Sequence record: MK327931.1
From: Escherichia phage vB_EcoM_G17
DNA: 64,000 bases
Reading direction: 5' to 3' (one strand)
Position 1 is the stretch's first letter, and each line of letters starts with the position of its first letter. Position numbers and translations under genes: made by a program. Below, one piece after another: positions 8,232 to 55,448 of the stretch. Below the pieces are notes generated by a model that saw only the letters and a list, made by a program, of their open reading frames with translations, had not been told where the DNA came from and made no database searches.

Positions 8232-8237
8232 TCCTCA

Positions 8238-8804
8238 TTAGTATAAATCAGTAATGTCTTTGTATGCATTAATCTGTTTTTGTTGTAATGAAAGTTCATT
8301 GAGTTTAGTTACCATTTTATCTACACCAACACGTGTATAGAAAATAATAAATGAATCTAAATTGCCTAGAGTAATTCTTGAACTGAAATTTGAAAGTTTT
8401 CTTGCATAAACATAAATTTCTTCTTCACTTGGTAAACGTTTCTCAATCGGCCAGCTTTCCACACCATTCGGCTCATAATCGATTTCAAATTCAACTCCCA
8501 TCACTGTGTCTTGAATGAGATCCGTATATGAACCACCGTAAAAATACTCTCTTGGTTTGGCTCTCCAACGAGGACTAAATGGGTCAGATGCGTATTCTTT
8601 TACAAATTTGTAAAAGGACATTTTACTGAGCATATACTTCATCTCAATTAGTGCTTTGCGGTCATCATCAGTTTTAAACTCTGCTTTGAGCGATGGACTT
8701 TTACACAGTAACTTAACTAAATTGATGTACATCTTTAATGTACGTTGTTCTTTCATTTCTTTGATTTTGTGACGTTTTGGTGGCGGTAATAAAGATTTGA
8801 CCAT
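8238..8804 (-). CDS. hypothetical protein, tandem paralog
   Basis: Paralog motif KSPSLKAEFKTDDDRKALIEMKYMLSK. Confidence 0.55.
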   Translation of the reverse strand: MVKSLLPPPKRHKIKEMKEQRTLKMYINLVKLLCKSPSLKAEFKTDDDRKALIEMKYMLSKMSFYKFVKEYASDPFSPRWRAKPREYFYGGSYTDLIQDTVMGVEFEIDYEPNGVESWPIEKRLPSEEEIYVYARKLSNFSSRITLGNLDSFIIFYTRVGVDKMVTKLNELSLQQKQINAYKDITDLY

Positions 8805-8871: not shown

Positions 8872-11601
8872 TTATTTCCAACGTGTACCTGGACCTGATG
8901 GTACACCAGTACTGGCAGGTATCGCTGAACCACGTTTCGTTGTACTTGGACGATATGTCAAAAAACGAGTTACTTTTTCTGTATCAATTGAAGTTATTCC
9001 TGAAGTTCCAGTAACTATCTTACCAATGTAAGTGCTAGTTAAAGATTCATCAATTGTTTCAGTACTAATAACATATGACGCTTTCTTAGTATTCCTGTTC
9101 ATTTGTATATACAAATAGAACGTAGTATTAGCTGGGTTACTTTTTACAGTACTTAAATCAACACTTTGTATAGGTAGTCTGTCGAAAATTCCACCTAAAA
9201 ACACCGGAACTTCACGTGTAAAGTACACTGAGAATCCTTGTGCAACGTCTTGTGATACTACCACAATCTTTTCTTTAACGCTACCATTTCCACTAATTAA
9301 ACCATCCATTTCAGCAGATGTTGTACCAAAAACGCTGAATACAGATTTGGTTTGATAGTCAGAATCTTGAAAATTGTAATATCCAAAACCAACACCAGGA
9401 ATAACACCATGTTGATATGCTGCACCAAGTTGGATGTAACTAGATGATAAAAAACGATTTGATGTTATGACACCATCTACTGTTTTAGCTATCATCATCT
9501 TAAATTGTGCATTACCTGGTTGTGAAAATTGATGAACAGCATCAACACCAATGTAACCAAATCCTGAATATTTTGCAACTGTTAGACCAGTACAACGTTT
9601 CATATATGCTTCAGTAATAATTCCTGTAACAGAACTAAGTGTCTCATATCTAGTACTTACCAATGTAGCTGAAGTTATGTTAGATCCAGATAATACAACA
9701 TCAACTTCGGCATAGATTGCATAACCTTGGTTATTGTTAAGATTATATGCTGAAACTACTGCAATGGATTTAGAAAAAGTATTATCAGGTACATAATATA
9801 ATACAATTTGTCCAGATAGTGTACCAACAATGCCAGAGTTTCCTAGATTAGCAAAAATATCTTGTTTTAATGATTCTAATACCGTTGGTTCTATTGTATA
9901 TGTTTCATCAAATTCTAAAGTATCTGGGTTTAATAATCCACCACTTGTTTTATATACACCTTCAATGAATGATGTTCCATAACATCTAACACTACCATCG
10001 GTATCAACAAGAGAAATCATAGCAGTGTATGTAAAATCATCACCTATTTGTTTACGATTAGATTGTGGTGCAAAACCATTTAATGTAGTATTATTTTGAA
10101 CTGAGTTATATTGATATGTTGGTTGTGAGCCTATTTCAGAAAAAACAGTATTATTATAATTATATGTTACATCATCATACGTACCAGAACATGCTAATAA
10201 TATTTTTCTATTATCGATGAAACGTACACCTAATAGGTTTGCACCAACAGCACTACCAAAAACTGGTAAAACGTTTGCATTTATAACGTTACTTGCGGAT
10301 CTAGTACTAGCAACCCATGAATCAAACGGTGTACCACTAACCTTATATCGTTGTAGACCATAAAATTCAGTTGAACTCCATCTAAATTTAGATGCAAATA
10401 CTAAACCATCTTTGGTTTGACATAAACCACCTGCGTTTCCTAATACACCAGCAGCAGTTGTCCCAGTAAAGTTGACCATATTGATTTCAAATGGGTTAGA
10501 AACTTGAAATCCATTATCATATGAAACTGTAGCAGGAGCACGAGCAGAACCATCTAGTGACATAGATTTTGAGTTTATATTATAAACAAAACTGATACCA
10601 GTACCATACACTGTTGAAATATATAAAGGTGTAACCATTCTATGGGTTGGGTATAAAGTTACACGTATTTTGGATAAATCAGTACTAACGTTTGCTTGTA
10701 TATTAAAGTCTGTATAATCCGAAAATTCTACACGTGAGACTGGTGATGTAACTTCGAATAATGAATCCGAGCTAGTACCAACACTATATAATCTATCAAA
10801 CACTCTTATGTTATTAGATGCAGAATAACTTGTATTTCGAACAGTTTGCCCTGATAATCCAGTAACTTTTGTTAATGATGCCATTGAGCTTGCTTTCACA
10901 TCACTTAGCTCTACTGTATAAATTGAAAGTGCTAATCCTAAATTAGAAACACTTTTATCTTTACACCAAATATATACTTTTGTTCCAACAATATGAGTAT
11001 ATATAGGCATATCATTACCAAAAGAAGTACTTGGTACTTTAGCATGAATATGTGATACTTCGTTGAATGTACCATTAGTTATAGTAAAAATATAATTATC
11101 TTCTGTACTTAAACATCCAAGCATTTCATAACCATTAGAGCCAATAAAATACTTAATATTCTCTGTACTACTCATAATTGAAGGTTTATACATTGAATTG
11201 GTTGAAATAACACTTTCTTGTGAAATCATGGTTATATTTCTGATTTCTCGTATAAATGAATAATAAAAACCTTTAGTACTACCATTGGTTCCGCTACGCA
11301 GAACAACGGCGGTTCCATCATCTTCAATAATTGTTGGCTGAACTACTTGGTCACTTGACATAGGTGTAGCACCTTCATACGACCCACTTACGTTTAATGG
11401 CAAGTAATCCATTTCTCCTACACGTGATATAGGCAACATATCTAAAATACTTTGAACTTCTGAACGCTTATATATTGGATATTGAACAATTCCAGTATTG
11501 GCATTCGGTGAGGTTCCATTAAAAGTACGCATAGCGTACCTTTGTCCAATTGCCAAGTTCCCAAGGATCTCGGCACTTCCTATAATTCGTTTTGATGACA
11601 T
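8872..11601 (-). CDS. tail fibre / receptor-binding protein, paralog 1
   Basis: About 910 aa, Ser/Thr/Gly/Asn-rich; N-terminus (PISxxGxxxYLPxxVSG) and C-terminal ~70 aa (VxRFxTYRPSxTxxGSxxPxSTGxPSxxGT) shared with 12217..14913; start set at Met31 of track ORF (AAGGA SD, 16 nt after upstream stop). Confidence 0.7.
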   Translation of the reverse strand: MSSKRIIGSAEILGNLAIGQRYAMRTFNGTSPNANTGIVQYPIYKRSEVQSILDMLPISRVGEMDYLPLNVSGSYEGATPMSSDQVVQPTIIEDDGTAVVLRSGTNGSTKGFYYSFIREIRNITMISQESVISTNSMYKPSIMSSTENIKYFIGSNGYEMLGCLSTEDNYIFTITNGTFNEVSHIHAKVPSTSFGNDMPIYTHIVGTKVYIWCKDKSVSNLGLALSIYTVELSDVKASSMASLTKVTGLSGQTVRNTSYSASNNIRVFDRLYSVGTSSDSLFEVTSPVSRVEFSDYTDFNIQANVSTDLSKIRVTLYPTHRMVTPLYISTVYGTGISFVYNINSKSMSLDGSARAPATVSYDNGFQVSNPFEINMVNFTGTTAAGVLGNAGGLCQTKDGLVFASKFRWSSTEFYGLQRYKVSGTPFDSWVASTRSASNVINANVLPVFGSAVGANLLGVRFIDNRKILLACSGTYDDVTYNYNNTVFSEIGSQPTYQYNSVQNNTTLNGFAPQSNRKQIGDDFTYTAMISLVDTDGSVRCYGTSFIEGVYKTSGGLLNPDTLEFDETYTIEPTVLESLKQDIFANLGNSGIVGTLSGQIVLYYVPDNTFSKSIAVVSAYNLNNNQGYAIYAEVDVVLSGSNITSATLVSTRYETLSSVTGIITEAYMKRCTGLTVAKYSGFGYIGVDAVHQFSQPGNAQFKMMIAKTVDGVITSNRFLSSSYIQLGAAYQHGVIPGVGFGYYNFQDSDYQTKSVFSVFGTTSAEMDGLISGNGSVKEKIVVVSQDVAQGFSVYFTREVPVFLGGIFDRLPIQSVDLSTVKSNPANTTFYLYIQMNRNTKKASYVISTETIDESLTSTYIGKIVTGTSGITSIDTEKVTRFLTYRPSTTKRGSAIPASTGVPSGPGTRWK

Positions 11602-11617
11602 CTTTCTTTTCCTTAAT

Positions 11618-12205
11618 TTACCAACCAATTGTACCAGTTTCTGATGGTTTTCCAGTACTGACTGGGAATGAAGAACCTTTTTGTGTAACACTAGGTCTAT
11701 ATGTACTAAATCTGGATACTTTATTAATGTTTATATTTGTAATACCACTTGTACCAACGGTCAGTGTTCCAATAAACATTATAATTTCAGATTCTTGTAT
11801 TTGTGTTGGTGATATTTTATAAATTGGTTCACCGAGAACTAACGTTGCATATACATATTGTGTTTGTGTTCCAGATGAAACAGTTGAAGCAAAAATAGAA
11901 ACTGCTGGAAATTTATAAAGATAACCACCAATAAATGATGGTATCTGTCTATTAAATGTAAGACTATAGCCTGATGAAGTAATATTTAGACTAGCGTCAT
12001 CATACAATTCTCCGTATTGTGTAAGTGGTAATCCATTGACAATAAAGTTAACTTCATCTTTGGTAATAGAGGGGAATGTACATTCCCCATTTGAATTTGT
12101 TGGGTAATAAGTCATATTATTACCTAATACACCAAGTCCAGTACTTTTACCCTGTACTGTAACTTGTTGCATTGCCTTAAGGTCTGCTCTTATTTTAAAT
12201 GCCAT
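11618..12205 (-). CDS. short tail-fibre-related protein sharing the conserved C-terminal domain
   Basis: 195 aa; C-terminus KVSRFSTYRPSVTQKGSSFPVSTGKPSETGTIGW aligns with the C-termini of both long fibre proteins. Confidence 0.6.
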   Translation of the reverse strand: MAFKIRADLKAMQQVTVQGKSTGLGVLGNNMTYYPTNSNGECTFPSITKDEVNFIVNGLPLTQYGELYDDASLNITSSGYSLTFNRQIPSFIGGYLYKFPAVSIFASTVSSGTQTQYVYATLVLGEPIYKISPTQIQESEIIMFIGTLTVGTSGITNININKVSRFSTYRPSVTQKGSSFPVSTGKPSETGTIGW

Positions 12206-12216
12206 TATGTAATCCT

Positions 12217-14913
12217 TTACCAGTTTATGGTTCCTGTTTGTGATGGTAGACCGTAGCTAACTGGGAACGATGAACCTGCTGATTCAAGTGAAGCACCAAA
12301 TATATCTAAACGTGAACGTTTTTGTATATTAATAGTTTCGATTTGAATTGCGTTAGTTTGAATAGTACCTATCCAAAAAATATTATATGCAGTTGTTCCT
12401 GTTTCGGAAATAACATCAGTAGTTATGTAGTAGTTTGCCAACCCTTGTTCTAATTTAACATATACATAAAATGTTGTATTTGCTGGATTAGATTTTATAG
12501 TTCTCAAATCAATATTTGAAACTGGTAGTGTAAAAGACTTACCTGATAGTATAACTGGTGTTTCCTCTGTAAAATAAACAATAAACCCTTGAGCAACGTC
12601 TTGTGATACTACGTTAATTGGGCTACCTTGTGGAGTCCAGTTATTATAGTCGGCTATCGTTGTTCCATATTTTTGAAATGACATTTTATTTGTATAATCC
12701 AGTGGATCAAAAATACCAAATCCAATACCAGGCAACGCAGTGGGTTGTCTTCCTTGTTCATAACTGGCATGAGAACCAGTAATAACAAAACTTGTAAATT
12801 GTGCAGTTGATTTAGTTACATATGCTCTAAATTGATGAGTTGCTGTATTTCCTATTGTTGGATGTGTTAATGGGTCAGAACCACCAATGAAGTAGAATGA
12901 ACCACCATCATAAATTGTTAACCCAACAGAAGAAGATGCAATCGAACCATTACCATTAGGTGTAAAGTTTTCACCATATGTATTTTCTAGTACTAAACGC
13001 TTAAAGGTAATAGATGTTATATTTCCAACTCTAGTATTAACGTTAACTTCAGCAATTCTAATATAGTTTTTATAGTCATTTGTTATAGTACTCAACATAA
13101 CAAAAGCCGGAATGTCAGTTTGTTGTGGAACAAATAATGTCATATCACGATAAGCTTGTGAAGATAAGTTCCAGTCACTTAGAACTTTAGCATATTCTGT
13201 ATTTCTAAAGTTATCTAGAACTGATTGTGTAACACTAATAACACCAGTACCATTTAAGTTTTTATCATATGAAAATGATTGTGAATAACGTTGACCAACC
13301 ATAAAAATACCGCCATTAGTTGTTACAGTTGAACCTGAAATACTACTAATGAAAATTCTATTATTGGCATTATCATCTACATAACCACGTTCAGTTGTAG
13401 GTTCATAACCTTGTATGGTTCCTAAAGATAATGATTTAAATGTAAAATTAGGAGTACTTTTATGAACTGCATATGATGGTCTAAACCCACCACTACCAGA
13501 CGCACGTGAATATTGTTTAGTACTATTATCTGGTAACAACTCCACACCATTAATAAATGAACCAACTGCTGAACCAAAGGATGGTCTAACAACTCCACCT
13601 TTAAAATCAGTTGATTGTACTGCACGAACGTTAATCATACTATAAACAATTTGTATAGGAAACTTTGCTTTTTGCATAAGTAATGGTTCTGCTAAGTTTG
13701 GACACACAGTACAAAAAGCTTCACCTGAACTTAAGTAAAAATAAGAACTATAAATGTTTCTTGCATTAGCATGATTATATAATGGATCATTATTTAAAAC
13801 GTTACCTGTAGGCACTAATGCAGAACCAGTATTGGTTATAACCAATGGTGCTTGATATGAACCTATGTCATTCCCAGCGTCTAGGGTGCATTGTTTAGTA
13901 CTCATATTAAATGCAAAGCTGTAGCTATGTTGTGGTCGGGCATTATATGTCGCCATTGTAAACCATGCATCACCATTCATTCTAAAACGAAAGTTCTGTG
14001 TTCCTGGTTGCTGTGCAACATACAAATCAATGGATGTCATATAAATCCCAATACCACGTAGGTTTTGTGGTACATACACATAAGGCTTATCTGCTATATT
14101 AGTTGAAGTTACTTGATTAGTAATAACCATGTTATTCTGTGCAGAATAAGTTGTATTATAGAATGTTTTTGTAGTCCATCCTGTAATACGAGTTGCCGTA
14201 TATGTTCCATTGCTAATATTATATACAACTCGGACAACAACTAACTGTAGTTGGTTATTTTCATTAAGAACACTAAAGACATAGATTGAACCATCTTCAG
14301 CCATCATTGCAAATTCTATACCACCTTCAGGGCAAATATCTGCTTGATTTACAAAAAAACCAGTATGTAATTTATCATCTAATGTACCATTAGTAATAGA
14401 AATAAACAATCCATTAGTACTGTTAGAAGTGTCTACATATCTACCGAGTAAAATATTTGGATCAGTATTGTATAAGCCAATTGCGACGCGATTTGAACCG
14501 AAAAAACCAGGCTTGTATTGACGACTGGTGTTAATTGTACGGCTCATGTCATCAACTGATAATGCGTTAGCCAAATATGAATAATATAATCCCTCAACAC
14601 TACCGTTTGTACCACTACGTAATAATACGAGTGTACCATCGTTTTCTAATAAAATTTTATTTCTACGTTGGGACTGGTTTTCAGATGCACCATTGAAATC
14701 ACCAGATACACCAGCAGGAAGATAGTTTTGTGACCCATAATGGGAAATTGGCATCATACTGACGATATCTAGTACTTCATCTCTTGAATAAGTATCTAGC
14801 TCCATATTGCCATTAGCATCAAATACTTGATCATTGATACCTTGTATTGTTCTTTTACCATTAACTGTCACATTATGTGTGACATCCAAGCCACCATATA
14901 TTTTCTTTGACAT
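12217..14913 (-). CDS. tail fibre / receptor-binding protein, paralog 2
   Basis: 898 aa; same composition and shared termini as paralog 1; AAGGGA SD upstream; TATAAATA motif 35 nt upstream. Confidence 0.7.
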   Translation of the reverse strand: MSKKIYGGLDVTHNVTVNGKRTIQGINDQVFDANGNMELDTYSRDEVLDIVSMMPISHYGSQNYLPAGVSGDFNGASENQSQRRNKILLENDGTLVLLRSGTNGSVEGLYYSYLANALSVDDMSRTINTSRQYKPGFFGSNRVAIGLYNTDPNILLGRYVDTSNSTNGLFISITNGTLDDKLHTGFFVNQADICPEGGIEFAMMAEDGSIYVFSVLNENNQLQLVVVRVVYNISNGTYTATRITGWTTKTFYNTTYSAQNNMVITNQVTSTNIADKPYVYVPQNLRGIGIYMTSIDLYVAQQPGTQNFRFRMNGDAWFTMATYNARPQHSYSFAFNMSTKQCTLDAGNDIGSYQAPLVITNTGSALVPTGNVLNNDPLYNHANARNIYSSYFYLSSGEAFCTVCPNLAEPLLMQKAKFPIQIVYSMINVRAVQSTDFKGGVVRPSFGSAVGSFINGVELLPDNSTKQYSRASGSGGFRPSYAVHKSTPNFTFKSLSLGTIQGYEPTTERGYVDDNANNRIFISSISGSTVTTNGGIFMVGQRYSQSFSYDKNLNGTGVISVTQSVLDNFRNTEYAKVLSDWNLSSQAYRDMTLFVPQQTDIPAFVMLSTITNDYKNYIRIAEVNVNTRVGNITSITFKRLVLENTYGENFTPNGNGSIASSSVGLTIYDGGSFYFIGGSDPLTHPTIGNTATHQFRAYVTKSTAQFTSFVITGSHASYEQGRQPTALPGIGFGIFDPLDYTNKMSFQKYGTTIADYNNWTPQGSPINVVSQDVAQGFIVYFTEETPVILSGKSFTLPVSNIDLRTIKSNPANTTFYVYVKLEQGLANYYITTDVISETGTTAYNIFWIGTIQTNAIQIETINIQKRSRLDIFGASLESAGSSFPVSYGLPSQTGTINW

Positions 14914-38769: not shown

Positions 38770-39039
38770 TTATAAAAATGTTAAATCTTCAGTACTTAAT
38801 TGTGATAATTTACCATCATATTCTATTTCAACATATACATCTTGGTCATAAACAGCAACTACACGTTTAATAACTCCAACCTTCACGACATTCTTTTTGT
38901 AGTTGAACTCAACTGAACAACCAATAAGTTTATTTGATAGAATCTCACGTATTTGATTTGCATGGTCTTTTAGGATAGAATTAATAGATTTTTTCATAAT
39001 ATATCTATCATTCAAATATTTTTTAACTACATCATGCAT
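38770..39039 (-). CDS. hypothetical protein (small dispersed paralog family)
   Basis: 89 aa; internal LIGCSVEF motif resembling other ~90-aa ORFs here. Confidence 0.45.
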   Translation of the reverse strand: MHDVVKKYLNDRYIMKKSINSILKDHANQIREILSNKLIGCSVEFNYKKNVVKVGVIKRVVAVYDQDVYVEIEYDGKLSQLSTEDLTFL

Positions 39040-39044
39040 AATTA

Positions 39045-39803
39045 TTACCTTTTGAAACGATTGAATGAGTACTCATCTTTTTCTTTACGTAAGTATCTCA
39101 TCCCACCACTTTGTGGAGTAGCGAGAGTTAAGTCACCCGTCAAGAACTGACTATCAATCCAAATGCGATTACCGTAAATGAGTGGGTCTGTAACTGCTGT
39201 ATGTCCACTAAAGACACAATGCACTCCATCTAACTTAGGTGCATAATATGTATTATTAGTTCTACAATAATCGAATGTTTTTCTATCCCACAAGCACTTA
39301 TCAATTATATCAGCACTAAGTGATTTTGTCCCATTAACAAATCGTTCCCATGTTGTATATTCCAACGGAACTCCAGCATGAACTAACCCAATCTTCAATC
39401 CTCGGTGATTGATTTGGATAATCATAGGGAGATCCTTTAAGTACTGACGAAAGAATTGAATGCCTGTTCCTCCAACTTCATCAAGGAATTTATCACCACC
39501 ATTACTTATCCAACAATGATACCAATCTCGAAGTGTTTCCGAATCAACGCACATCATCTCATGATTACCCGCAATCATGTAACGATTTTCTCCGAACAAA
39601 AATTCAAAAAGGAGCTTTGAATTTTGTTCTCCACGGTCGATAATATCACCTACACTGAAAACATAATCATTGTGTGTAATACCAAATTCTTTCACTGTAG
39701 CATCCCATAGTTTACCATTACCATGCAAATCACCTACAATGTATAAATCTTTATCATCAGGTACAGTTACTTCTAAGAAGTGTTTCATTATTACTCCAAC
39801 CAT
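39045..39803 (-). CDS. Ser/Thr protein phosphatase (lambda-PPase-like metallophosphatase)
   Basis: Motifs GDLHGNG, VGDIIDRGEQ, AGNHEMM. Confidence 0.8.
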   Translation of the reverse strand: MVGVIMKHFLEVTVPDDKDLYIVGDLHGNGKLWDATVKEFGITHNDYVFSVGDIIDRGEQNSKLLFEFLFGENRYMIAGNHEMMCVDSETLRDWYHCWISNGGDKFLDEVGGTGIQFFRQYLKDLPMIIQINHRGLKIGLVHAGVPLEYTTWERFVNGTKSLSADIIDKCLWDRKTFDYCRTNNTYYAPKLDGVHCVFSGHTAVTDPLIYGNRIWIDSQFLTGDLTLATPQSGGMRYLRKEKDEYSFNRFKR

Positions 39804-40042
39804 ATAATATTAGTGTGTTTAGTAACTTGTGTTCCAGCAAAAGAACCATCTTTAAGATAAGTATTAATTTTAAAACGCCATTCACCACCACTAATATACA
39901 TATCAGTAATAATATACTTTCCATACCCTCTGGAGTTTATTAATCGTACTTCTTGACCAATATATTTTGGCTTCAGATCATTTATAAAATCATCAGCCAA
40001 AGACATAAGATATCGCAAATGTGATAAGTCAGTGTTGAACAT
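39791..40042 (-). CDS. hypothetical protein (small paralog family)
   Basis: 83 aa; LKPKYIGQEVRLI motif. Confidence 0.45.
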   Translation of the reverse strand: MFNTDLSHLRYLMSLADDFINDLKPKYIGQEVRLINSRGYGKYIITDMYISGGEWRFKINTYLKDGSFAGTQVTKHTNIIWLE

Positions 40043-40259: not shown

Positions 40260-40589
40260 TTATTCCTCATCATCCACTAAAACAAGATAATCCAAACTTA
40301 ACTCGGTATCTATGTAACAATCACAATTCAAGTACTCAATTTCAGCACCTATAGTTCTCCCATTCTTAAATATCTCAATGATTTTCATTCTAGTATTGGG
40401 ATTAATGTGTTCAATGTCGTATTCGTATTCAGGGTCAATATACTCACTTGTCATACGTTTGATGTATTGTTCCGAATATCGTACAGTTTTACCTATAAGA
40501 TCATTACTCAACGTCTGATAAAAATCATCTTGAATTTTGAATAATGACCTATAAAAAATATTATGTTGAATTAGTGGTTTCATTGACAT
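40260..40589 (-). CDS. hypothetical protein (small paralog family)
   Basis: 109 aa; LIGKTVRY motif. Confidence 0.45.
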   Translation of the reverse strand: MSMKPLIQHNIFYRSLFKIQDDFYQTLSNDLIGKTVRYSEQYIKRMTSEYIDPEYEYDIEHINPNTRMKIIEIFKNGRTIGAEIEYLNCDCYIDTELSLDYLVLVDDEE

Positions 40590-41897: not shown

Positions 41898-42194
41898 TTA
41901 ATATATAATCTCACTAGCTTCTATTGTGTAGACACCATCATCAGTCATTAATCTAACTGCAACTTTAATATTATTAGACATTCGTGTAACTATCAATCCA
42001 ATAATTACACCATTCTTTAAAGTACCGTTATGGTATCTTACTTGTACTTTAGTTTTGTTATCAATTAGGTATCTTCGAATTTGATGAATTTCAGTTCTAA
42101 ACAGTTCTAAATAAACTTCACTATATTCCTTATCTGAACCGTCTGAACACCAGTACAATAAATTTACTTGTTCAAATAATTTTTTTATATTCAT
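41898..42194 (-). CDS. hypothetical protein (small paralog family)
   Basis: 98-aa ORF. Confidence 0.45.
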   Translation of the reverse strand: MNIKKLFEQVNLLYWCSDGSDKEYSEVYLELFRTEIHQIRRYLIDNKTKVQVRYHNGTLKNGVIIGLIVTRMSNNIKVAVRLMTDDGVYTIEASEIIY

Positions 42195-42550
42195 AAAAAT
42201 CTCACAGATTTAATATTACTGGTTACATGATTTACCCAAGTGTTATCGAACTTGTAAACAATTGTATTAAGTGATTTATGAAAATTAACCTCGCACACTA
42301 ATGCCTTGGAACCATTGATTGTACAGACCGTGGATGGTAAGTTGTTTGCTAATATCTCTTTTTCATCTAAACATAGTGAACTAATACAATCATAATAGAG
42401 AGGTTCAAGAACTTTTTCAGTACTGAGAAATTCAAAAGAAAGATCATCTATTAGTTTTATGTAATCGAATAAATTATGATAATATTCATTCATTGCAGAT
42501 CCTTTTAAATTTAGCATTATTAGAATATGTATATGAATGACCGAAATCAT
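42191..42550 (-). CDS. hypothetical protein
   Basis: 119-aa ORF. Confidence 0.4.
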   Translation of the reverse strand: MISVIHIHILIMLNLKGSAMNEYYHNLFDYIKLIDDLSFEFLSTEKVLEPLYYDCISSLCLDEKEILANNLPSTVCTINGSKALVCEVNFHKSLNTIVYKFDNTWVNHVTSNIKSVRFL

Positions 42551-42740
42551 TTACACCATGTACATTTAGTACACCGTCACTGAAATAAATTCGATCAATA
42601 GTGAGTTCACGTTTATAATCCCAATCATCATACCAGCACAGAACACGAATACCTTTGTACTTTGTAGTTAAATCATTTTCTAATATAGTCAAGTAATCAA
42701 TATGACTTTTGAATATCTCTAAGTCCTGCTCAAACATCAT
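42486..42740 (-). CDS. hypothetical protein (small paralog family)
   Basis: 84 aa; LTTKYKGIRVLCW motif. Confidence 0.4.
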   Translation of the reverse strand: MMFEQDLEIFKSHIDYLTILENDLTTKYKGIRVLCWYDDWDYKRELTIDRIYFSDGVLNVHGVNDFGHSYTYSNNAKFKRICNE

Positions 42741-42997
42741 TGTTCCTCGTATAATTCTATATCATCAACACCAACTTGGCGAATTGCAGTACTTCTGTTG
42801 AATGTATTTTTTTCAAACAAACATACTGTTAAACGTATTTCACACTTCAATGCACTATAATAAATCATATCAATAACACCATATGTTTCATACATTTCTA
42901 CGTATACATTTCGACCTAAATACTTTTCTTCTAAATCAGTAATTAGACTATTGATAAGATTACCTATCTGTGTTATATCTGTGTGAAATTTATCCAT
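42737..42997 (-). CDS. hypothetical protein (small paralog family)
   Basis: 86 aa; LEEKYLGRNVYV motif. Confidence 0.45.
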   Translation of the reverse strand: MDKFHTDITQIGNLINSLITDLEEKYLGRNVYVEMYETYGVIDMIYYSALKCEIRLTVCLFEKNTFNRSTAIRQVGVDDIELYEEQ

Positions 42998-44167: not shown

Positions 44168-44482
44168 TTACTCAATGAATTCTACATCTTCGAGTTTGTG
44201 CCATCCTCTTGAAAGGTTTCTTGTTCCGTTATTGTATTCAGTGTATACAAAGCATTCACCATTTACTAAATTACCAATAGCAGTACGCGATACTTTAACA
44301 TCAAGAATTATAGTACTGAACCATTCTCTGATTGTATGATCCCAGCATTTAACTTTACATCCAATCAATGTTTTCTTAAAATCGAAAACGTAATCTTCGA
44401 CCATTGATTCGACAGATTCTATTAGTTCCTTTTCAATGTACTTTAACTTTTCGATCCTCTCAAATGCAAGTTCTTTATTCAT
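44168..44482 (-). CDS. hypothetical protein (small paralog family)
   Basis: 104 aa; LIGCKVKCW motif. Confidence 0.45.
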   Translation of the reverse strand: MNKELAFERIEKLKYIEKELIESVESMVEDYVFDFKKTLIGCKVKCWDHTIREWFSTIILDVKVSRTAIGNLVNGECFVYTEYNNGTRNLSRGWHKLEDVEFIE

Positions 44483-44488
44483 ATGTCC

Positions 44489-44743
44489 TCAATTATCTAG
44501 AACATCCACTATCAAACAAGCTTCAATAACGAAACAATCATCTAATTCAAAGAGTAATTGATAGTCATCAGAAAACTTCACTTTAGTAATGTAAGCACTT
44601 TCAATTCCACCACTATGATAAGAACTATATAAAATACATTTACCTGTATATTCCTTACGGATACGACTAAATTCTTCATATAAATGAGTAATAAACGTAT
44701 CCGCAGTTTTGTTGTAGTATTTTAGGTCACTTACTGTGCTCAT
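44489..44743 (-). CDS. hypothetical protein
   Basis: 84-aa ORF. Confidence 0.4.
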   Translation of the reverse strand: MSTVSDLKYYNKTADTFITHLYEEFSRIRKEYTGKCILYSSYHSGGIESAYITKVKFSDDYQLLFELDDCFVIEACLIVDVLDN

Positions 44744-48230: not shown

Positions 48231-48274
48231 CTTTGTACCTGCGAAAAAAGACCAGCAAACGCTGGCCTAAGAAT

Positions 48275-48556
48275 TTAAATTATTTCATAAAGACAATATA
48301 CACCATCAACGCCAGCATCAGGAAAATCAACATAGAAATTCACACTAACAGTGTCGTAATCTATATCAGTGATTCGTCCGGTTTTACCTACACTTTTTAC
48401 AAATATATCAGACCCAAGATACACAAACTCGAACTCGTCAGCATACTCTTTTATGATATCTGCGAACCTACAACCACACCTAGGTTCTGTGTTAATAATT
48501 TCAAGATATAATGTAATATATTGTTCGTATGTCCATGTGTGTAGATAAAAATCCAT
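48275..48556 (-). CDS. hypothetical protein
   Basis: 93-aa ORF. Confidence 0.45.
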   Translation of the reverse strand: MDFYLHTWTYEQYITLYLEIINTEPRCGCRFADIIKEYADEFEFVYLGSDIFVKSVGKTGRITDIDYDTVSVNFYVDFPDAGVDGVYCLYEII

Positions 48557-48566
48557 AGAAGTTTCC

Positions 48567-49304
48567 TTAGAAATATATCATACCCATCAATTCAGAATCG
48601 GCGGGGCGAGTATAACCTTGCTTCTTAACTTTAAAATAGAATGATTCATGCTCTTCTAAATTATAACGTTTTTTCAAGCAACGAGTGTATGTCTGACAAT
48701 TTGGGTGAACCCATTCATAAATGTGAATGCCATTTTCGTCATAACCATTTATACTACAACGATTTCCTTCATGCTTCATGAAGTTTTTACTTTTTTCAGT
48801 AAATTCTTTCACTGTAGTTGTATATGGGGATTTGTATTCAAAAGGAACTTCAGTCATACGAAAATAATAGTATTCTTCGTCTTCATCATATCCCAAGAGC
48901 ACTGTGTTAGTTTCACGTACATTGTAATGATTCTTACTTTTTAATTCATTTTCGTATATATCTTTCAGTACTTCTGCAAAAACTTCCTCGCTTGATGCAT
49001 TAGGATTAGATACACCTGATACTCGGCGTTCAATAATAAAATCAGTGAATTTACGGTCTTCGGCAATATCTTCGTTCATATAAAGACTAACAAACTTATC
49101 CTTATATGTCTTTACACTATATTGCTTACTTTGCACTTCACTATAAACATCTGCTAACATATTCTCCTGACCACACTGCACACCACTTACAGAATAAGCA
49201 CATGCATGTTCAGCCATTACTGATGTTAACATTTGGAAATTTGCCATGTTTAATTCATTCGCCATCTCTGTAGCGAAACGGATACGGTCAAGCATTTCAC
49301 ACAC
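48567..49304 (-). CDS. hypothetical protein
   Basis: 245-aa ORF. Confidence 0.5.
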   Translation of the reverse strand: MCEMLDRIRFATEMANELNMANFQMLTSVMAEHACAYSVSGVQCGQENMLADVYSEVQSKQYSVKTYKDKFVSLYMNEDIAEDRKFTDFIIERRVSGVSNPNASSEEVFAEVLKDIYENELKSKNHYNVRETNTVLLGYDEDEEYYYFRMTEVPFEYKSPYTTTVKEFTEKSKNFMKHEGNRCSINGYDENGIHIYEWVHPNCQTYTRCLKKRYNLEEHESFYFKVKKQGYTRPADSELMGMIYF

Positions 49305-49353
49305 TCCTTGTGTTAATTATTGTTCCTTACCCATTATTATATCATGAATTAAA

Positions 49354-49650
49354 CTATTGTCCCTGTTTATAGCAATAAAGATTCTCTAATTTAAAATCTA
49401 CTAGATCACATTCAGAACGTACTCGATTCTTGTTCCAGAATAAAATACGAATCCTTTCATAATCACGATAAACACTAATAATGCTTCTGTGCTTGGATTT
49501 GTAGTAATCCTGTACTATCCCCAGATACACAGTCCTCAATAAAGACTTAGTTGGATAGGGCATATTCTGTGCTGACGTGATATCGTAAATCATCTTCATT
49601 GTTTCAGCAACAAGTACTTCATTTGTTCTCATTGTAATCCTTACATACAC
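49354..49650 (-). CDS. hypothetical protein (track start is GTG; true start probably an internal ATG)
   Basis: 98-aa ORF. Confidence 0.4.
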   Translation of the reverse strand: MYVRITMRTNEVLVAETMKMIYDITSAQNMPYPTKSLLRTVYLGIVQDYYKSKHRSIISVYRDYERIRILFWNKNRVRSECDLVDFKLENLYCYKQGQ

Positions 49651-49795
49651 TATGTAAAGTAAATCCTAATCCAACACCGACAAATGGAAATAGTAAATTG
49701 ATATACCAAGTATTAATTGATGAAAGTAAACAAATCCCACATACTGTCAGTACTGCCAATGAAAAAAGACTCCAGATAAAAAATACTGCTCTCAT
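49619..49795 (-). CDS. small hydrophobic protein (58 aa, two TM segments), not in ORF track
   Basis: Hand-translated MRAVFFIWSLFSLAVLTVCGICLLSSINTWYINLLFPFVGVGLGFTLHSVCKDYNENK; GAGGT SD about 10 nt upstream; ATGA overlap with upstream gene stop. Confidence 0.4.
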   Translation of the reverse strand: MRAVFFIWSLFSLAVLTVCGICLLSSINTWYINLLFPFVGVGLGFTLHSVCKDYNENK

Positions 49796-50082
49796 AAAAA
49801 TGTTACCTCATCAAATGAAAAGTTTAAGTACGTTGTTGAATCTTGGTCTAAAGTATGAATAGTAATATGACCATTGAAATAAAAAGAAACATCAACTATT
49901 TGAAGTTTTGGGTATTTTCTAGTACTGAAATACCTTCCTACTACTAAGTCAGAAAACATATTTCTGTATTCTTGTGTTACGTTTTTGTATAGGTTATGTA
50001 GAGCACTTTCTTGTGAATCGAAAGTAATGGAATAATCTTTCACCAATATAGCATATGTTTTCTGCATTAAAATGATATTCAT
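49792..50082 (-). CDS. hypothetical protein, tandem ~90-aa paralog array
   Basis: 96 aa; similar size and composition to 50079..51937 ORFs. Confidence 0.45.
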   Translation of the reverse strand: MNIILMQKTYAILVKDYSITFDSQESALHNLYKNVTQEYRNMFSDLVVGRYFSTRKYPKLQIVDVSFYFNGHITIHTLDQDSTTYLNFSFDEVTFL

Positions 50083-50342
50083 AAATCTCCTAATATCTCA
50101 AAAATTATTGATATTGGGTATACTGGGTTATCAGATGAAGTAACACATACTATTAGTACGTTTTTTCCAGGTGCTACATCCTTTACCGTGAAATTAATAT
50201 TATTAAGAATCAGTGATTTACCAATATAATGCTCTTTCAATAATTCAACAAAATAATCCAGTACTGGATTATCTGCACTATATGATAACTCAGTACTTGA
50301 TATCATTTTATATGTATGAACTATTAGTTCAGCTTTAGTCAT
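50079..50342 (-). CDS. hypothetical protein, tandem ~90-aa paralog array
   Basis: Start moved to Met42 of track ORF (avoids swallowing the zinc-ribbon ORF); LKEHYIGKSLIL motif. Confidence 0.45.
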   Translation of the reverse strand: MTKAELIVHTYKMISSTELSYSADNPVLDYFVELLKEHYIGKSLILNNINFTVKDVAPGKNVLIVCVTSSDNPVYPISIIFEILGDL

Positions 50343-50535
50343 GAACACGCTCACAATTAAGGCAATAAATGCACTCAATGTCAGGTCGCCATGATTTATC
50401 AAAATCTTTGTGTTGTTCTTCGGTGTATTCCGCATCATCATTAATAGGGAAGAAATCACCAGCACCAGTCGCCCAGTCTGAATCTAAACGGAAACGAGCT
50501 AATTGAGTACTGTTACAATATGGACATTTATTCAA
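50335..50535 (-). CDS. zinc-ribbon protein
   Basis: 66 aa; CPYC ... CIYCLNC. Confidence 0.45.
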   Translation of the reverse strand: MNKCPYCNSTQLARFRLDSDWATGAGDFFPINDDAEYTEEQHKDFDKSWRPDIECIYCLNCERVHD

Positions 50536-50812
50536 AATTTATTCCTTCTAACTGATATACGTTTAATGAAAATGACCCACTATTATTATCGCATCTGAAA
50601 CACAGTGTTAAAGAACCATTAAAACTAACTACATCCGTACAGATACATTTTTCACCATTGGATATGATAGATTTTCCTATATATAAATCTCTTACTATAG
50701 TACGGTAATGTTGCCATAAAAAATAATACACACTTTCATAGTACTCATCTTTTACATATGATAAGTATAAGAATTTATAAAATACTTGTATTTCCTTTAA
50801 GTTGTTTTTCAT
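50528..50812 (-). CDS. hypothetical protein, tandem ~90-aa paralog array
   Basis: N-terminal EIQVFYKFLYLSY and DLYIGKSIIS motifs. Confidence 0.5.
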   Translation of the reverse strand: MKNNLKEIQVFYKFLYLSYVKDEYYESVYYFLWQHYRTIVRDLYIGKSIISNGEKCICTDVVSFNGSLTLCFRCDNNSGSFSLNVYQLEGINFE

Positions 50813-51086
50813 TCTTCAATTCCAGTAAATTTACACCAATCCAATCAACATCACTATCAGTACTTAATTCCAATCGTAGCTTACCGCTATGACTAACAAT
50901 ATCGCGGAATTTGTATATTTTATTATCACGAACTATACACAAATCATGGTAATATTCATGTAATTCATCCAAAAACTTTATCCATACCGAACGATAGATT
51001 TCACTGTAGAGATATTCTCCAGCATCAACCGTAGCGTATTGGATATACAAAAATTTGTATGTGAATTGTATATCATTTAATAACAT
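50775..51086 (-). CDS. hypothetical protein, tandem ~90-aa paralog array
   Basis: N-terminal LNDIQFTYKFLYIQY. Confidence 0.5.
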   Translation of the reverse strand: MLLNDIQFTYKFLYIQYATVDAGEYLYSEIYRSVWIKFLDELHEYYHDLCIVRDNKIYKFRDIVSHSGKLRLELSTDSDVDWIGVNLLELKNEKQLKGNTSIL

Positions 51087-51096
51087 ATGTAACCTC

Positions 51097-51408
51097 TTAT
51101 AAATTCACCAACTTCACAACTTTAATCTCGATAAATCCCCTATCGGTTATTTCCTGAAATTGAACATGGATTATACCATTATATGATTGCACACCATAGA
51201 AATCGAATTTATCATTTCCATCGATAAAAGTACTGTAATTCTTTTTTATATATTCACCTACTGAATCTAAGTACTCAATATATAAATCAATAAATGGTTG
51301 TTCTTTGGATCGGTTATGTGAACCTATGTTGTTACTAACAAGGTATACATCATACAAATCATATAGGATCTTATAAGTGAATTGTATATCATTTAAATTT
51401 AATCCCAA
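51097..51408 (-). CDS. hypothetical protein, tandem ~90-aa paralog array
   Basis: N-terminal LNDIQFTYKILYDLY. Confidence 0.5.
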   Translation of the reverse strand: MGLNLNDIQFTYKILYDLYDVYLVSNNIGSHNRSKEQPFIDLYIEYLDSVGEYIKKNYSTFIDGNDKFDFYGVQSYNGIIHVQFQEITDRGFIEIKVVKLVNL

Positions 51409-51665
51409 GGGAATATCTCCAACGGAATACTGGTAAATCCAAAATCAGTGTAGTACTGAACCTCAACTTTACCATCACGTCTAATGATTATATCAGAAAA
51501 TTCTGCATGGTCATCACCAATAATAACAGTACTGAATTTTTTTTTAATCTTACCACGAATCGTATGAATCATTTCAGTGCATGTGTCTTCTAGACTAGGG
51601 CTATCATTGTCGTGTGCTAAATCTCGAATAATCTTGTATGTTAGTAGGAAATCTTTATAATTCAT
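51399..51665 (-). CDS. hypothetical protein, tandem ~90-aa paralog array
   Basis: N-terminal DFLLTYKIIRDL. Confidence 0.5.
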   Translation of the reverse strand: MNYKDFLLTYKIIRDLAHDNDSPSLEDTCTEMIHTIRGKIKKKFSTVIIGDDHAEFSDIIIRRDGKVEVQYYTDFGFTSIPLEIFPWD

Positions 51666-51937
51666 ATGTCCACCAAATCTATACTATATCTTTCATTAGT
51701 ATTACTATCTATAAATGATAGTACTAATTTACCACCAAAACTATTAACTTGTTCTATCTTCTGTTTTTTACCACGAATGATTATCTCACTATTAACAAAA
51801 TATTCACGTATCATTATTAAGTGATTAATCCAGATAGTATGAGTGAATGTGTTTTCTCGTATTGTATTGAGATATCTTCCATTGTGATGTAAATCAAACA
51901 AAACACTGTATGTATATTGTAGAACTTTATAATTCAT
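51662..51937 (-). CDS. hypothetical protein, tandem ~90-aa paralog array
   Basis: N-terminal YKVLQYTYSVLFDL. Confidence 0.5.
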   Translation of the reverse strand: MNYKVLQYTYSVLFDLHHNGRYLNTIRENTFTHTIWINHLIMIREYFVNSEIIIRGKKQKIEQVNSFGGKLVLSFIDSNTNERYSIDLVDI

Positions 51938-51983
51938 ATATCCCCTTACAAAAATAGCCCGAACTTATGTCGGGCTATGTACA

Positions 51984-52598
51984 TTATTCATCGTCGTCAT
52001 CGTCATCTAGATCGATATAGATACTATCATCACCATCATCAAAGTACTCCACAATAACTCCTGGAATATTAAGGGCAGTAAACATTGCATCATATTTCTC
52101 ATCAGATGGAATCAAAACAAATTCGTCAATGTTTTGAACTTCTGGCATTTTATCTTCGGGGATACCCATATCAACAAGTGACTGAATAATCTTTTCTTTG
52201 AATTCTAAAAACTTCTCTTCAGATTCAAAATCCATAATAAGCTGTGCAACATATCCTTCATCGTTACCGAATGAAATTGACATTTGTGCATCAGTACCGA
52301 CATAGCACCAAACACGTTTACCTGTGTGCTGCTCAATAAAGTTTTGAATCTGTAACACAATGTCATGGCGAGAACTGTTAGCAATGTTGTTAAGATTTTC
52401 TACACCAGCATTAATTCCAGTACTGTCATTTGTTTCTTCAAATTCACCATAATCACCCAATACATACTGTACACCTTCATGATGTAATGCATATGCATAG
52501 TCAAGGTCAGCGAGTGAATCGCACTTTCCACGGATCGGACGTAGGGAAAGACCTAAGCGAAGATAACGGAAGTATGTATTAGTATTTGTATTTGTCAA
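51984..52598 (-). CDS. acidic protein with poly-Asp C-terminus
   Basis: Start set at TTG (AAGGAG SD 7 nt upstream) after upstream gene stop; C-terminus YFDDGDDSIYIDLDDDDDDE. Confidence 0.45.
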   Translation of the reverse strand: MTNTNTNTYFRYLRLGLSLRPIRGKCDSLADLDYAYALHHEGVQYVLGDYGEFEETNDSTGINAGVENLNNIANSSRHDIVLQIQNFIEQHTGKRVWCYVGTDAQMSISFGNDEGYVAQLIMDFESEEKFLEFKEKIIQSLVDMGIPEDKMPEVQNIDEFVLIPSDEKYDAMFTALNIPGVIVEYFDDGDDSIYIDLDDDDDDE

Positions 52599-52878
52599 CG
52601 TAATGCTCCTTAACAATATAAAAGTAGTTGCTGTTATTGTCAAAAAAGATAACCATCCCTTTATAGACATTTACACCAATTTTGATTTCACATATGTTAT
52701 TTGATTTACTCGCTTCAGTCAATAACATTTTGTGCTCTTTACTGAAAGTGTGGAACAGTGGTTTGACATGCCACATTTCGATACCATCCAGTACTGAAAA
52801 TTTTTCACTAAATTTAATCATTGATTCTTGTAAAAAATATCCTGTAAGATTTATTTCATCACACATGCAAGTTTCCAA
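52579..52878 (-). CDS. hypothetical protein
   Basis: 99-aa ORF. Confidence 0.45.
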   Translation of the reverse strand: METCMCDEINLTGYFLQESMIKFSEKFSVLDGIEMWHVKPLFHTFSKEHKMLLTEASKSNNICEIKIGVNVYKGMVIFFDNNSNYFYIVKEHYVDKYKY

Positions 52879-53154: not shown

Positions 53155-53688
53155 TTATTTCCTCATGTATTTTATAACGTCTTCAAATAATTGTATTTTT
53201 AAGTCCTCGTCATTTCCAGGTAAAAACTCACGAAAACTATCAAAATCTTCATTTTTTGCGAAGTTACGCATTTGTGTTGAGCTATATTGACTTACATTAC
53301 GGTCAATACCTGCCTGAATTGCTTTTATACTACAAAAATTATACAACTTACCATTGTACATGTCAAGAGTTTTTTGAAAAGAATCAATACGGTCAGAACC
53401 ACAAATGAAAAGAACATCTAAGTACTTTCCATCCAGTTCTCTCATTATATCAAATAGATTGTCTTCTGTGTAGATGTTCTCTTGCACTGAAGGATAGAAT
53501 CCCTCTGTATAATACATTTTTAGTTCAGGTGGGAGTGGGTTTTTTATATTGTCAGTACTGGTGCTTAGATATATTTTTAAATCAGCATTGTACTGTTCTT
53601 GTAATGTTTTGGCCTTTTCAAAAACTAAACCATGTCCACGATGTACAGGATTAATACGACCAAACGTTAATACACATGTTTCTTTCAT
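53155..53688 (-). CDS. HxGH-type nucleotidyltransferase (cytidylyltransferase superfamily; NMN adenylyltransferase- or PPAT-like)
   Basis: N-terminal FGRINPVHRGH (HxGH) and downstream SSTQMR (ISSTxxR-like). Confidence 0.65.
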   Translation of the reverse strand: MKETCVLTFGRINPVHRGHGLVFEKAKTLQEQYNADLKIYLSTSTDNIKNPLPPELKMYYTEGFYPSVQENIYTEDNLFDIMRELDGKYLDVLFICGSDRIDSFQKTLDMYNGKLYNFCSIKAIQAGIDRNVSQYSSTQMRNFAKNEDFDSFREFLPGNDEDLKIQLFEDVIKYMRK

Positions 53689-54843: not shown

Positions 54844-55384
54844 GTCTAATTCTACACAAGTACTATTTTCTTTTAATTAATATTGACGGGGTTTGCTTGA
54901 GCATATTTCATCCCCCCGCAGGGGAAAGAACAAAAAAATTTGACGCTGGTGGCCTTCACATAGTTCATATCACGAATTCTCTTACGAGACGAAAGCGGGT
55001 TGCTCTGTTTCTCTCTATCGCGGTTCTTGTAGCAACGGTCGTCGGTCTTAAACATCCCGACACATAATACAAATACCATATGACCAGTACTTGTATTTGA
55101 TTTCACAAAATTTGGACGCAACTATATTGTATAATTCCGACCGCATATTTCTTATGAAATCTCCCTTAGATAATTGGTAAGGTGCGATCCTTATATGTCT
55201 ATCGAGGAACTCTCTTTATCCTATTGGAGTTCTTTATACAGCCGCATTGCCGTGAGTGGTTCAAACTATGCCATCATCTAACGGGTTTCATCTGCTGTTC
55301 GTACTGAAAGGACTACTCATCTACCCTCTACATTTTCGAGTGGATTAGGCTTTTAATCATTTCCTTATGGGAACCTTTCAGGAT

Positions 55385-55420
55385 TAAAAAAAGGTGACTA
55401 ACATATTATGTTGTCACCTT
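55385..55420 (-). terminator. rho-independent terminator
   Basis: Long stem AAGGTGAC(t)AACAT/ATGTTGTCACCTT followed on minus strand by T7. Confidence 0.65.
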
Positions 55421-55448
55421 ATATTATATCATTAACTTATCATTTGTC

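Follow-up and report, generated by a model that had tools for sequence, protein, structure and literature searches.

The 64,000-nucleotide stretch of the Escherichia phage vB_EcoM_G17 genome analyzed here (sequence record MK327931.1; hereafter the window) carries on its minus strand, at positions 49792-51937, a tandem array of small-protein genes. Judging by their sequences, five consecutive genes of this array are paralogs, related by homology and not by composition; two more are probably very divergent members of the same family, and the gene embedded between the two groups encodes an unrelated zinc-ribbon protein. Together with dispersed genes elsewhere in the window, at least 16 genes that are treated by PHROGs as unrelated families can be joined into one probable superfamily with a predicted fold.

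Over positions 49300-52700, the array region matches phage Sharanji (OR545507.1, Asteriusvirus, 350 kb) at 100% identity and 121Q, PBECO4, phAPEC6, and other jumbo coliphages at 95-99.8%. Genes are therefore designated here by Sharanji numbering (gpNNN), window position 1 being Sharanji record position 271631. In this annotation the interval given in the original prediction corresponds exactly to eight back-to-back genes, gp530-gp537, all eight of which are listed as "hypothetical protein"; every gene in the surrounding region lies on the minus strand, and the genes are densely packed with abutting or overlapping ends. The original prediction, made from the sequence alone, had described a tandem array of at least seven paralogs of about 90 amino acids (aa). 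Part of this has held: gp533-gp537 are clear members and gp531 and gp530 probable ones, and the eighth gene in the row, gp532, is unrelated and had been overlooked.

A family of tandem paralogs

In an all-against-all BLASTP comparison, whose database consisted of 115 minus-strand open reading frames (ORFs), gp533-gp537 were linked as a chain with E-values of 6e-6 to 2e-4. Independent family assignments agree with this chain: gp534 and gp535 fall into a single PHROG (21004), which is also matched by gp533 (1.6e-4), by gp537 (3.5e-5), and more weakly by gp536 (0.011), and PHROG families 21004, 32291, and 35943 cross-match among the five genes. Comparison of profiles built from the core ortholog groups using hhalign yielded probabilities of 87-97%, and a hidden Markov model (HMM) of the core recovered 33 members across seven Asteriusvirus genomes, all with E <1e-22, against less than 14.3 bits for shuffled decoys. 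Similarity is even retained at the DNA level at the 5′ ends of the genes, over 26 nucleotides (nt) at 92% between gp534 and gp535 and over 54 nt at 70% between gp536 and gp537. The possibility that the resemblance is compositional, which the original prediction had named as what would overturn it, is ruled out for the five core genes, as BLASTP remains significant after correction for composition and shuffled sequences score below the members.

Two divergent members and the shared motifs

The other two genes, gp531 and gp530, are probably very divergent members of the family; each line of sequence evidence for them is weak, and the lines agree. With an HMM of the five core sequences they scored 12.4 and 12.2 bits, respectively, which is not separable from the best of 2300 shuffles (13.2 bits). 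When relatives from other phages and metagenomes were added to the core HMM, all five gp530 orthologs reached 15-16.4 bits and gp531 12.8 bits, and the maximum of 5050 shuffled decoys was 12.2 bits. In hhalign comparisons with the core profile, gp531 (25.7) and gp530 (24.1) ranked as the top two of 31 other small-protein families, with a best reversed-profile control of 18.6, and their alignments are in register, that of gp530 extending over 73 columns and including the N-terminal motif, and that of gp531 including the Y-I-G-K-S motif. Iterative searches starting from the core recruited gp531 at E<1e-4, and gp530 was recruited only from another seed (gp526). In other lineages, clear core members are found on the gp530/gp531 side of the zinc-ribbon gene, such as 13012-13302 in JNE01 (74 bits) and 4796-5119 in contig L009 (80 bits).

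Two motifs had been proposed to unite the array. The N-terminal one, x-Q-x-T-Y-K-x-L in the first helix, occurs in all seven genes, and its tyrosine is invariant in the seven-way alignment. A pattern chosen post hoc, after the data had been seen, [TF]Y[KSA].[LIVM] within the first 22 residues, was present in 8 of 116 window ORFs, seven of which are the array genes (1000 shuffles: mean 0.66, maximum 4). The internal pattern Y-x-G-[KR]-x-[VI] fared less well, being found among the seven window genes only in gp533, gp531, and, loosely, gp530; it is nevertheless the consensus in members from other phages (e.g., FIGKSI and FVGKSV) and in the dispersed genes. In addition, the glycine of an S-[YF]-x-G turn (G68) is invariant in alignments of 26 and of 67 sequences.

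Dispersed relatives and a probable superfamily

Seven dispersed genes had also been proposed as relatives. One of them, at 41898 (gp512), is directly linked to the core by iterative searches. The other six (38770, 39791, 40260, 42486, 42737, and 44168) form a separate network with hhalign probabilities of 30-82% and are connected to the core only transitively; pairwise hhalign comparisons between core and dispersed genes gave only 22-28%. Iterative searches from seeds gp506, gp517, and gp526 converged on core array genes. As controls, 16 seeds of similar size and composition were taken from the same region: 15 of them stayed within their own orthologs and none reached the core array, and the sixteenth, gp511 (41592), collected three extended-family members and may itself, on this sequence evidence, be one further member. 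A degenerate form of the internal motif, [YFLV][IVLKT]G[KRQCSL].[VILF], was observed in 10 of 60 small ORFs, all of which lie at 38.7-50.8 kb and carry it within residues 26-47; shuffles averaged 2.2 such ORFs and never exceeded 7.

The array and the dispersed genes therefore probably constitute one superfamily, in which approximately nine more genes at 38.7-48.6 kb appear to be older, more diverged offshoots (Table 1). Scanning 114 kb of Sharanji sequence beyond the window (record positions 50-221.6 kb, about 172 kb, lay outside the scan) revealed only one more relative, gp583, at record positions 345924-346232 (23.7 bits); within the sequence scanned, the expansion is local.

Table 1. Genes and other features of the array and its dispersed relatives (window coordinates)
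Feature	Position	Strand	Length (aa)	Assignment and supporting evidence
gp537	51662-51937	-	91	Core member, first array gene; BLASTP to gp533 2.2e-5; PHROG 32291, cross-match to 21004; core HMM 101 bits
gp536	51399-51665	-	88	Core member; BLASTP to gp535 1.7e-4; hhalign to gp533/534/537 cluster 92%
gp535	51097-51408	-	103	Core member; BLASTP to gp534 6.2e-6; PHROG 21004, like gp534
gp534	50775-51086	-	103	Core member; modeled by AlphaFold2
gp533	50528-50812	-	94	Core member; BLASTP to gp534 6.6e-6; YIGKSI motif at residue 44
gp532	50335-50535	-	66	CxxC...CxxC zinc-ribbon protein inside the array; not a family member
gp531	50079-50342	-	87	Probable divergent member; YIGKSL and N-terminal TYK motifs; iterative HMM recruitment from core
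gp530	49792-50082	-	96	Probable divergent member; N-terminal motif; recruited from seed gp526
gp526	48275-48556	-	93	Probable remote relative, absent from original prediction; own seed reaches the five core genes, gp530, gp504, and gp506; YLGSDI motif
gp517	44168-44482	-	104	Probable remote relative; own seed reaches gp533, gp534, gp535, gp537, and gp531
gp515	42737-42997	-	86	Probable remote relative; BLASTP to gp506 0.007, hhalign 54%; mutual recruitment with gp506 and gp517
gp514	42486-42737	-	83	Probable remote relative, weakest link; reached from seed gp515 only; with its own profile, gp530 comes next (16.2 bits)
gp513	42191-42493	-	100	Dispersed, absent from original prediction; recruited from core at iteration 3
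gp512	41898-42194	-	98	Dispersed, direct core link; iterative HMM from core takes orthologs, then gp512, E<1e-4; final 41.9 bits, decoys <=14
gp508	40260-40589	-	109	Probable remote relative; hhalign 82% to gp506; recruited from seeds gp506 and gp517
gp506	39791-40042	-	83	Probable remote relative, hub of dispersed set; hhalign 77-82% to gp517 and gp508, 22% to core; own seed reaches gp534
gp504	38770-39039	-	89	Probable remote relative, second protein modeled; recruited from seeds gp506, gp517, and gp526; LIGCSV motif
GC-rich hairpin with T-run (terminator-like)	51954-51978	-		In the 46-nt gap directly upstream of gp537

Predicted fold

Structures were modeled by AlphaFold2 for gp534, based on an alignment of 26 sequences, and for gp504, and both models are confident. 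The gp534 model (predicted local distance difference test score, pLDDT, 84.6; predicted template modeling score, pTM, 0.72) contains two helices (residues 3-18 and 25-45), followed by strands 50-53, 56-66, 69-75, and 82-86, a short helix, and strand 94-96. The gp504 model (pLDDT 91) has a single long helix (2-38) and strands 42-47, 51-63, 68-74, 77-82, and 86-88, the last of them preceded by a helical turn. Compared by element order, without superposition, the two have their beta elements in the same order and differ in having two versus one N-terminal helices. Our reading of the models is that the beta part is a small SH3-like barrel.

A Foldseek search of BFVD mainly returned orthologs and weak small-barrel matches. 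The gp534 model retrieved its orthologs, a 96-aa protein of slurp01 (E 1.8e-4, template modeling score 0.69) that, judging by its length only, is probably the gp530 ortholog, and an 89-residue RaK2 protein (E 0.026). The best match of the gp504 model was a 103-aa PBECO4 protein (E 1.8e-3), which is either the gp534 ortholog or the gp517 allele, and its further matches included phage proteins labeled "transcriptional regulator" and "putative RNA binding protein" (E ~0.02-0.05). The key matches (A0A1C3S6P8, L7TK39, and A0A411BGH0) were identified by length alone and not by sequence. Among Pfam families of comparable architecture, KOW (PF00467) stayed below threshold, with 2 of 25 dispersed-set sequences at E 0.1 and no core sequence, LSM/Hfq gave no match at E up to 1, and neither Sm nor KOW signature motifs were detected in the family.

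Distribution and age of the family

Searches of Pfam, NCBIfam, PADLOC, and PDB sequences with single proteins and with alignments returned nothing significant, and PHROGs lists the members only as separate families of unknown function, in keeping with the original statement that the family could not be named. Nor was there any significant match to characterized anti-defense or host-takeover proteins in PHROGs, Pfam, NCBIfam, PADLOC, or PDB. The range of the core family is very narrow. Using tblastn, it was found in 35 phage records, of which 31 belong to Escherichia phages and 4 to Salmonella phages, and each record inspected is an Asteriusvirus-type jumbo phage. A profile search yielded 33 clusters among 5.8 billion proteins and an exhaustive HMMER search 19 matches among 1.84 billion representatives; all metagenomic contexts that were checked are syntenic with the array region.

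A corresponding locus is present in the Klebsiella phage RaK2, which belongs to another genus. At the same position, after Dam, a cytidylyltransferase, and a gp538-like gene, RaK2 carries ORF452, ORF453, the zinc-ribbon ORF454, ORF455, and ORF456; ORF453, ORF456, and the dispersed ORF478 scored 15-22 bits against a decoy maximum of 11-12.5 bits. The metagenomic contig L022 likewise contains four close paralogs, the zinc-ribbon gene, and three more genes. As both RaK2 and L022 carry the locus with its zinc-ribbon gene, the locus is older than the split between the genera. The four genes upstream of the zinc-ribbon gene in L022 (3029-4045) resemble one another closely (M-I-D-P-V-L-A-Y-Y...) and barely match the Sharanji core profile; their sequences suggest that this position has expanded separately, and more recently, in L022.

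The papers describing Sharanji, UE-S1, phAPEC6, and RaK2 and a comparative review of jumbo phages do not mention the family. In these 350-kb coliphages, over 80% of the genes lack an assigned function; for phAPEC6, the reported figure is 83% of the predicted proteins (PMC7247149). The kind of feature is already known; the particular family, the probable superfamily, and the predicted fold are without description in the literature found.

Evolutionary dynamics of the array

The array had been described as rapidly evolving, which is supported by substitution rates, by mosaic alleles, and by copy numbers that vary among lineages. The ratio of nonsynonymous to synonymous substitution rates (dN/dS) is 0.17-0.7 for the array genes, compared with 0.02-0.18 for the phosphatase, kinase, RNA ligase, Dam, cytidylyltransferase, gp527, gp538, and gp532; the single value above 1 (gp534 versus PBECO4) rests on near-zero dS. 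By these sequence comparisons the array genes are under purifying but clearly relaxed or diversifying pressure.

Alleles are distributed in a mosaic manner. In WPEC5 and EC.P1, gp533 is 100% identical, gp534 is 64% and 97% identical, respectively, and gp531 29%; many other small genes of the region are mosaic as well. One case is the pair gp517 and gp518 (44168-44743, minus strand), next to the polynucleotide kinase gene, which is 90-94% identical (gp517 92-94%) in the otherwise distant JNE01 and Turkey5 and identical between 121Q and Sharanji. In PBECO4, WPEC5, EC.P1, and A4, gp517 is only 32-38% identical; no gp518 ortholog was detected in PBECO4, WPEC5, or EC.P1, and that of A4 has 32% identity. 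As far as the sequences tell, this is a sharp allele replacement.

Copy number by lineage is 5+2, 3+1, 1+about 6, or 4+3. In the A4, JNE01/Turkey5, and L009/L014 lineages, orthology is blurred (28-50% identity), and both the number of members and their placement relative to the zinc-ribbon gene differ. A 96-aa protein of Salmonella phage SD-6_S16 (P0025) joins a gp536-like N-terminus to a gp535-like C-terminus, which implies a deletion by recombination between paralogs; in the four Salmonella SD phages the array region is matched in 2-5 pieces with a coverage of 79-95%, which fits such deletions. A tandem origin of the genes is supported by their adjacency with overlapping or abutting ends, by the DNA repeats at the paralog 5′ ends, and by this fusion.

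The family is one of several paralog expansions in this genome, some of which are larger, and it is not surprising in kind. On the minus strand of the window, three consecutive related proteins of 169-188 aa are encoded at 7204-8804 (7710 versus 8238, E 9e-14), and three tail-fiber-like proteins of 939, 195, and 898 aa at 8872-14913 share a common C-terminal region (E 1.6e-59 to 2.7e-15). Outside the window, the Sharanji record contains a family of 32 proteins of approximately 52-96 aa (mostly about 72), 30 of them within 7.5-15.7 kb and with a stretch at 344.6-345.0 kb (L020) also involved, as well as eight consecutive paralogs of about 380-440 aa at 40.8-49.3 kb and two more families of seven members each.

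The embedded zinc-ribbon gene and the upstream hairpin

The gene gp532 shows no similarity to the array family by HMM or hhalign. It is near-invariant while the genes around it diverge beyond recognition or turn over: across seven Asteriusvirus genomes compared, its protein keeps 97-100% identity in all but JNE01, where the value is 87%, and its dN/dS is 0.02-0.12. Homologs are found in contig L022 (77% identity) and in RaK2, where ORF454 is a clear homolog (about 70%, an estimate); a homolog search gave three clusters only. Its position within the array varies by lineage (5-Zn-2, 3-Zn-..., 1-Zn-about 6, and 4-Zn-3, where Zn denotes the zinc-ribbon gene). The sole functional hint is a weak Lar-like Pfam match. 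Identification as the restriction-alleviation protein Lar (PF14354) was rejected, the score of 12.4 bits (E 0.19) being below the gathering cutoff of 28.6.

An improbable but far-reaching extension would be that gp532 and the array have formed one functional module since before the split between Asteriusvirus and Alcyoneusvirus, with the zinc ribbon as a fixed hub or effector and the paralogs as interchangeable adaptors that confer specificity for host targets such as defense proteins. If true, such a hub-and-adaptor module would represent a phage-encoded diversified recognition repertoire, upheld by duplication and by allele exchange between phages.

Directly upstream of gp537, a terminator-like hairpin (GCCCGA...TCGGGC) with its T-run and the ribosome-binding site is kept at the same position in A4, ph0011, JNE01, Turkey5, WPEC5, EC.P1, and contig L010, and its loop and flanks vary. 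As there is no space for a promoter between the hairpin and the start codon, read-through is the probable route by which the array is expressed. Another terminator-like hairpin is located after gp526 (48249-48268, minus strand). A scan for sigma-70 promoters showed no enrichment over shuffles and was uninformative on early expression, and no Asteriusvirus transcriptome was found in the literature.

Possible functions of the array proteins

That the family exists is much better established than the reading of its function favored here. The array proteins are small (approximately 90-100 residues) and lack a catalytic motif, and most members are acidic to neutral, with isoelectric points (pI) of 4.1-5.8 and net charges down to -11, which argues against a generic nucleic-acid binder. 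The 62 proteins that mass spectrometry identified in phAPEC6 virions include none of the six annotated array orthologs (gp384c-gp389c; the gp533 ortholog is unannotated there) (PMC7247149), and a role as virion proteins was rejected on this ground. The leading explanation, with a likelihood somewhat short of even, is that the array encodes non-enzymatic binding proteins on a common scaffold, which have been diversified for different host or phage macromolecules and make up a repertoire of the host-takeover or counter-defense kind. In this view the array is a lineage-specific multigene family of a RaK2-like jumbo phage, which arose by repeated tandem duplication, followed by strong divergence and by allele exchange through recombination. 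The scaffold would be kept by the hydrophobic core, which is conserved, and by the turn with its invariant glycine, and variable surfaces would recognize different host or phage macromolecules; the array, presumably sharing transcripts with the conserved zinc-ribbon gene in its midst, may thus serve as a diversified repertoire for taking over the host or for countering its defenses. The earlier interpretation, which had placed the genes among rapidly evolving host-interaction genes, is supported in part, namely in describing an expanded, unnamed, and fast-evolving family of small proteins.

Several points weigh against this proposal. Its binding and host-interaction steps are drawn from the size and fold of the proteins, from their context, and from the way they evolve. 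No informative comparison gave a gene-wide dN/dS of 1 or more, and the order 537-536-535-534-533 is stable in the clade of 121Q, PBECO4, Sharanji, and ph0011, which does not favor a strong arms race. With regard to the breadth of the superfamily, a direct comparison of the bulk profiles of core (A3) and dispersed (A6) genes was not significant (probability 1.5%, E 0.035, a short alignment at the motif), and the six dispersed genes named above are tied to the core through iterative searches, the shared motif position, and one similar AlphaFold topology.

Other explanations have to be considered alongside it. The proteins might be small factors that have a KOW-, Tudor-, or Sm-like barrel and bind nucleic acids, regulating phage transcription or translation or aiding the neighboring RNA-repair enzymes, and that are not aimed at host proteins. 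The modeled order of elements, a helix and a five-strand barrel, resembles that of Sm- and KOW-type small barrels; a few dispersed members have sub-threshold Pfam matches to KOW (E 0.1), the RimM PRC barrel, and Spt6 S1; the regulator and RNA-binding labels among the gp504 structure matches point the same way; and genes for RNA ligase and polynucleotide kinase adjoin. The acidity of most members, the lack of any Pfam match at threshold, and a fast divergence with allele replacement that would be unusual for core regulators nevertheless make such a role unlikely. Less likely still are phage-internal assembly chaperones or adaptors for paralogous fiber, hair, or DNA-condensation proteins, whose diversification would track the phage's own paralogs. 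The genome does hold other large paralog sets, including the eight proteins of about 380-440 aa and the tail-fiber-like proteins of the window, and chaperones need not be present in virions; but the array lies among nucleic-acid enzymes and small genes of unknown function and not beside any structural gene cluster, its six annotated orthologs are absent from the virion proteome, and its mosaic allele replacement is not accompanied by matching changes in structural genes, as far as examined.

Similarly improbable is a reading of the genes as duplicates that are mostly dispensable, do little or nothing at present, and persist because a 350-kb genome tolerates them. A dN/dS several-fold above that of the neighbors, the deletions inside the array of the Salmonella SD phages with their fusion gene, and the variable copy number are what such duplicates would show, but the dN/dS values, at 0.2-0.6, are not close to 1, reading frames and lengths are kept across lineages at less than 40% identity and into RaK2, and a conserved hairpin and ribosome-binding site precede the array. 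Finally, the idea that small AT-rich ORFs resemble one another here by chance or composition has been refuted for the five core genes and is very improbable as an account of the whole. The decoy-level scores of gp530 and gp531 with the five-sequence HMM and the non-significant comparison of bulk profiles would fit it; against it, core pairs are significant in composition-corrected BLASTP, composition-preserving shuffles never match member scores, 15 of the 16 control seeds kept to their own orthologs (and the three extended-family members taken by gp511 include no core gene), the motifs occur at fixed positions, and two models are confident and alike. The array represents a compact panel of genes to screen for toxicity, interactions, and anti-defense activity and a natural case of the diversification of a phage multigene family.

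Genomic neighborhood

The array belongs to an accessory block on one strand, in which the neighboring genes encode RNA ligase, polynucleotide kinase, Dam methylase, and a Ser/Thr phosphatase; according to the annotation of ph0011, an ADP-ribosyltransferase is also found in the neighborhood. Orthologs of the gene at 53155-53688 (minus strand) bear conflicting names, i.e., "ribonucleotide reductase A" (121Q), cytidylyltransferase (several phages), and phosphopantetheine adenylyltransferase (Turkey5), so that at least one name must be wrong. A gap of approximately 600 nt at 54844-55448 has no annotated gene in Sharanji and is also present in relatives. It contains one 82-aa ORF with a TTG start (54873-55121) and nothing else; of the six other genomes compared, five have this ORF conserved at 82-93% (over partial length in JNE01 and Turkey5), and it was undetected in A4. 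No Rfam or tRNA match and no notable repeats were found in the gap, and Rfam and tRNA scans of the whole window were empty. Between the orthologs of gp528 and gp527, ph0011 (L003 16781-18265) and EC.P1 (L007 16798-17721) have an added gene of 494 and 307 aa, respectively, which is absent from Sharanji.

Relation to known systems

Blocks of small early genes with host-takeover or anti-defense roles are well known in T4-like phages. The array resembles them in its dense small ORFs on one strand, its overlapping ends, the adjoining polynucleotide kinase and RNA ligase genes, and a content that varies among relatives, although its family has no sequence similarity to any named T4 protein. With regard to fold, the models, as we read them, resemble SH3-like barrels (SH3, Tudor, KOW, Sm/Hfq, and the PRC barrel): an N-terminal helix precedes five strands, the last of which follows a short helical turn. 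Neither sequence nor structure searches matched the family significantly to a named member of this group, and its own motifs, the N-terminal Q-x-T-Y-K and h-h-G-[KR]-x-[VI] at the junction of helix and strand, are distinct.

Host-range multigene families of poxviruses and African swine fever virus, the "genomic accordions" of large eukaryotic DNA viruses, offer a second parallel. Tandem paralogs, copy number that changes among strains, recombination between paralogs, and evolution faster than that of core genes are all present in the array as well. The role of the eukaryotic-virus families in host range or immune evasion is established, whereas that of the array is inferred only; furthermore, Sharanji has no recent near-identical copies of the kind that mark ongoing amplification, whereas L022 has four close paralogs.

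A third parallel is found among jumbo phages themselves. About 10% of the RaK2 gene products are paralogs (PMC3622015), and lineage-specific expansions, such as the approximately 35 zinc-ribbon copies of phage G, have been noted in a comparative review (PMC7824862). The zinc-ribbon fold of the phage G expansion differs from the fold predicted for the array family, but like such expansions the array is a tandem run of small, unannotated, phage-restricted proteins, here in a genome of approximately 350 kb.

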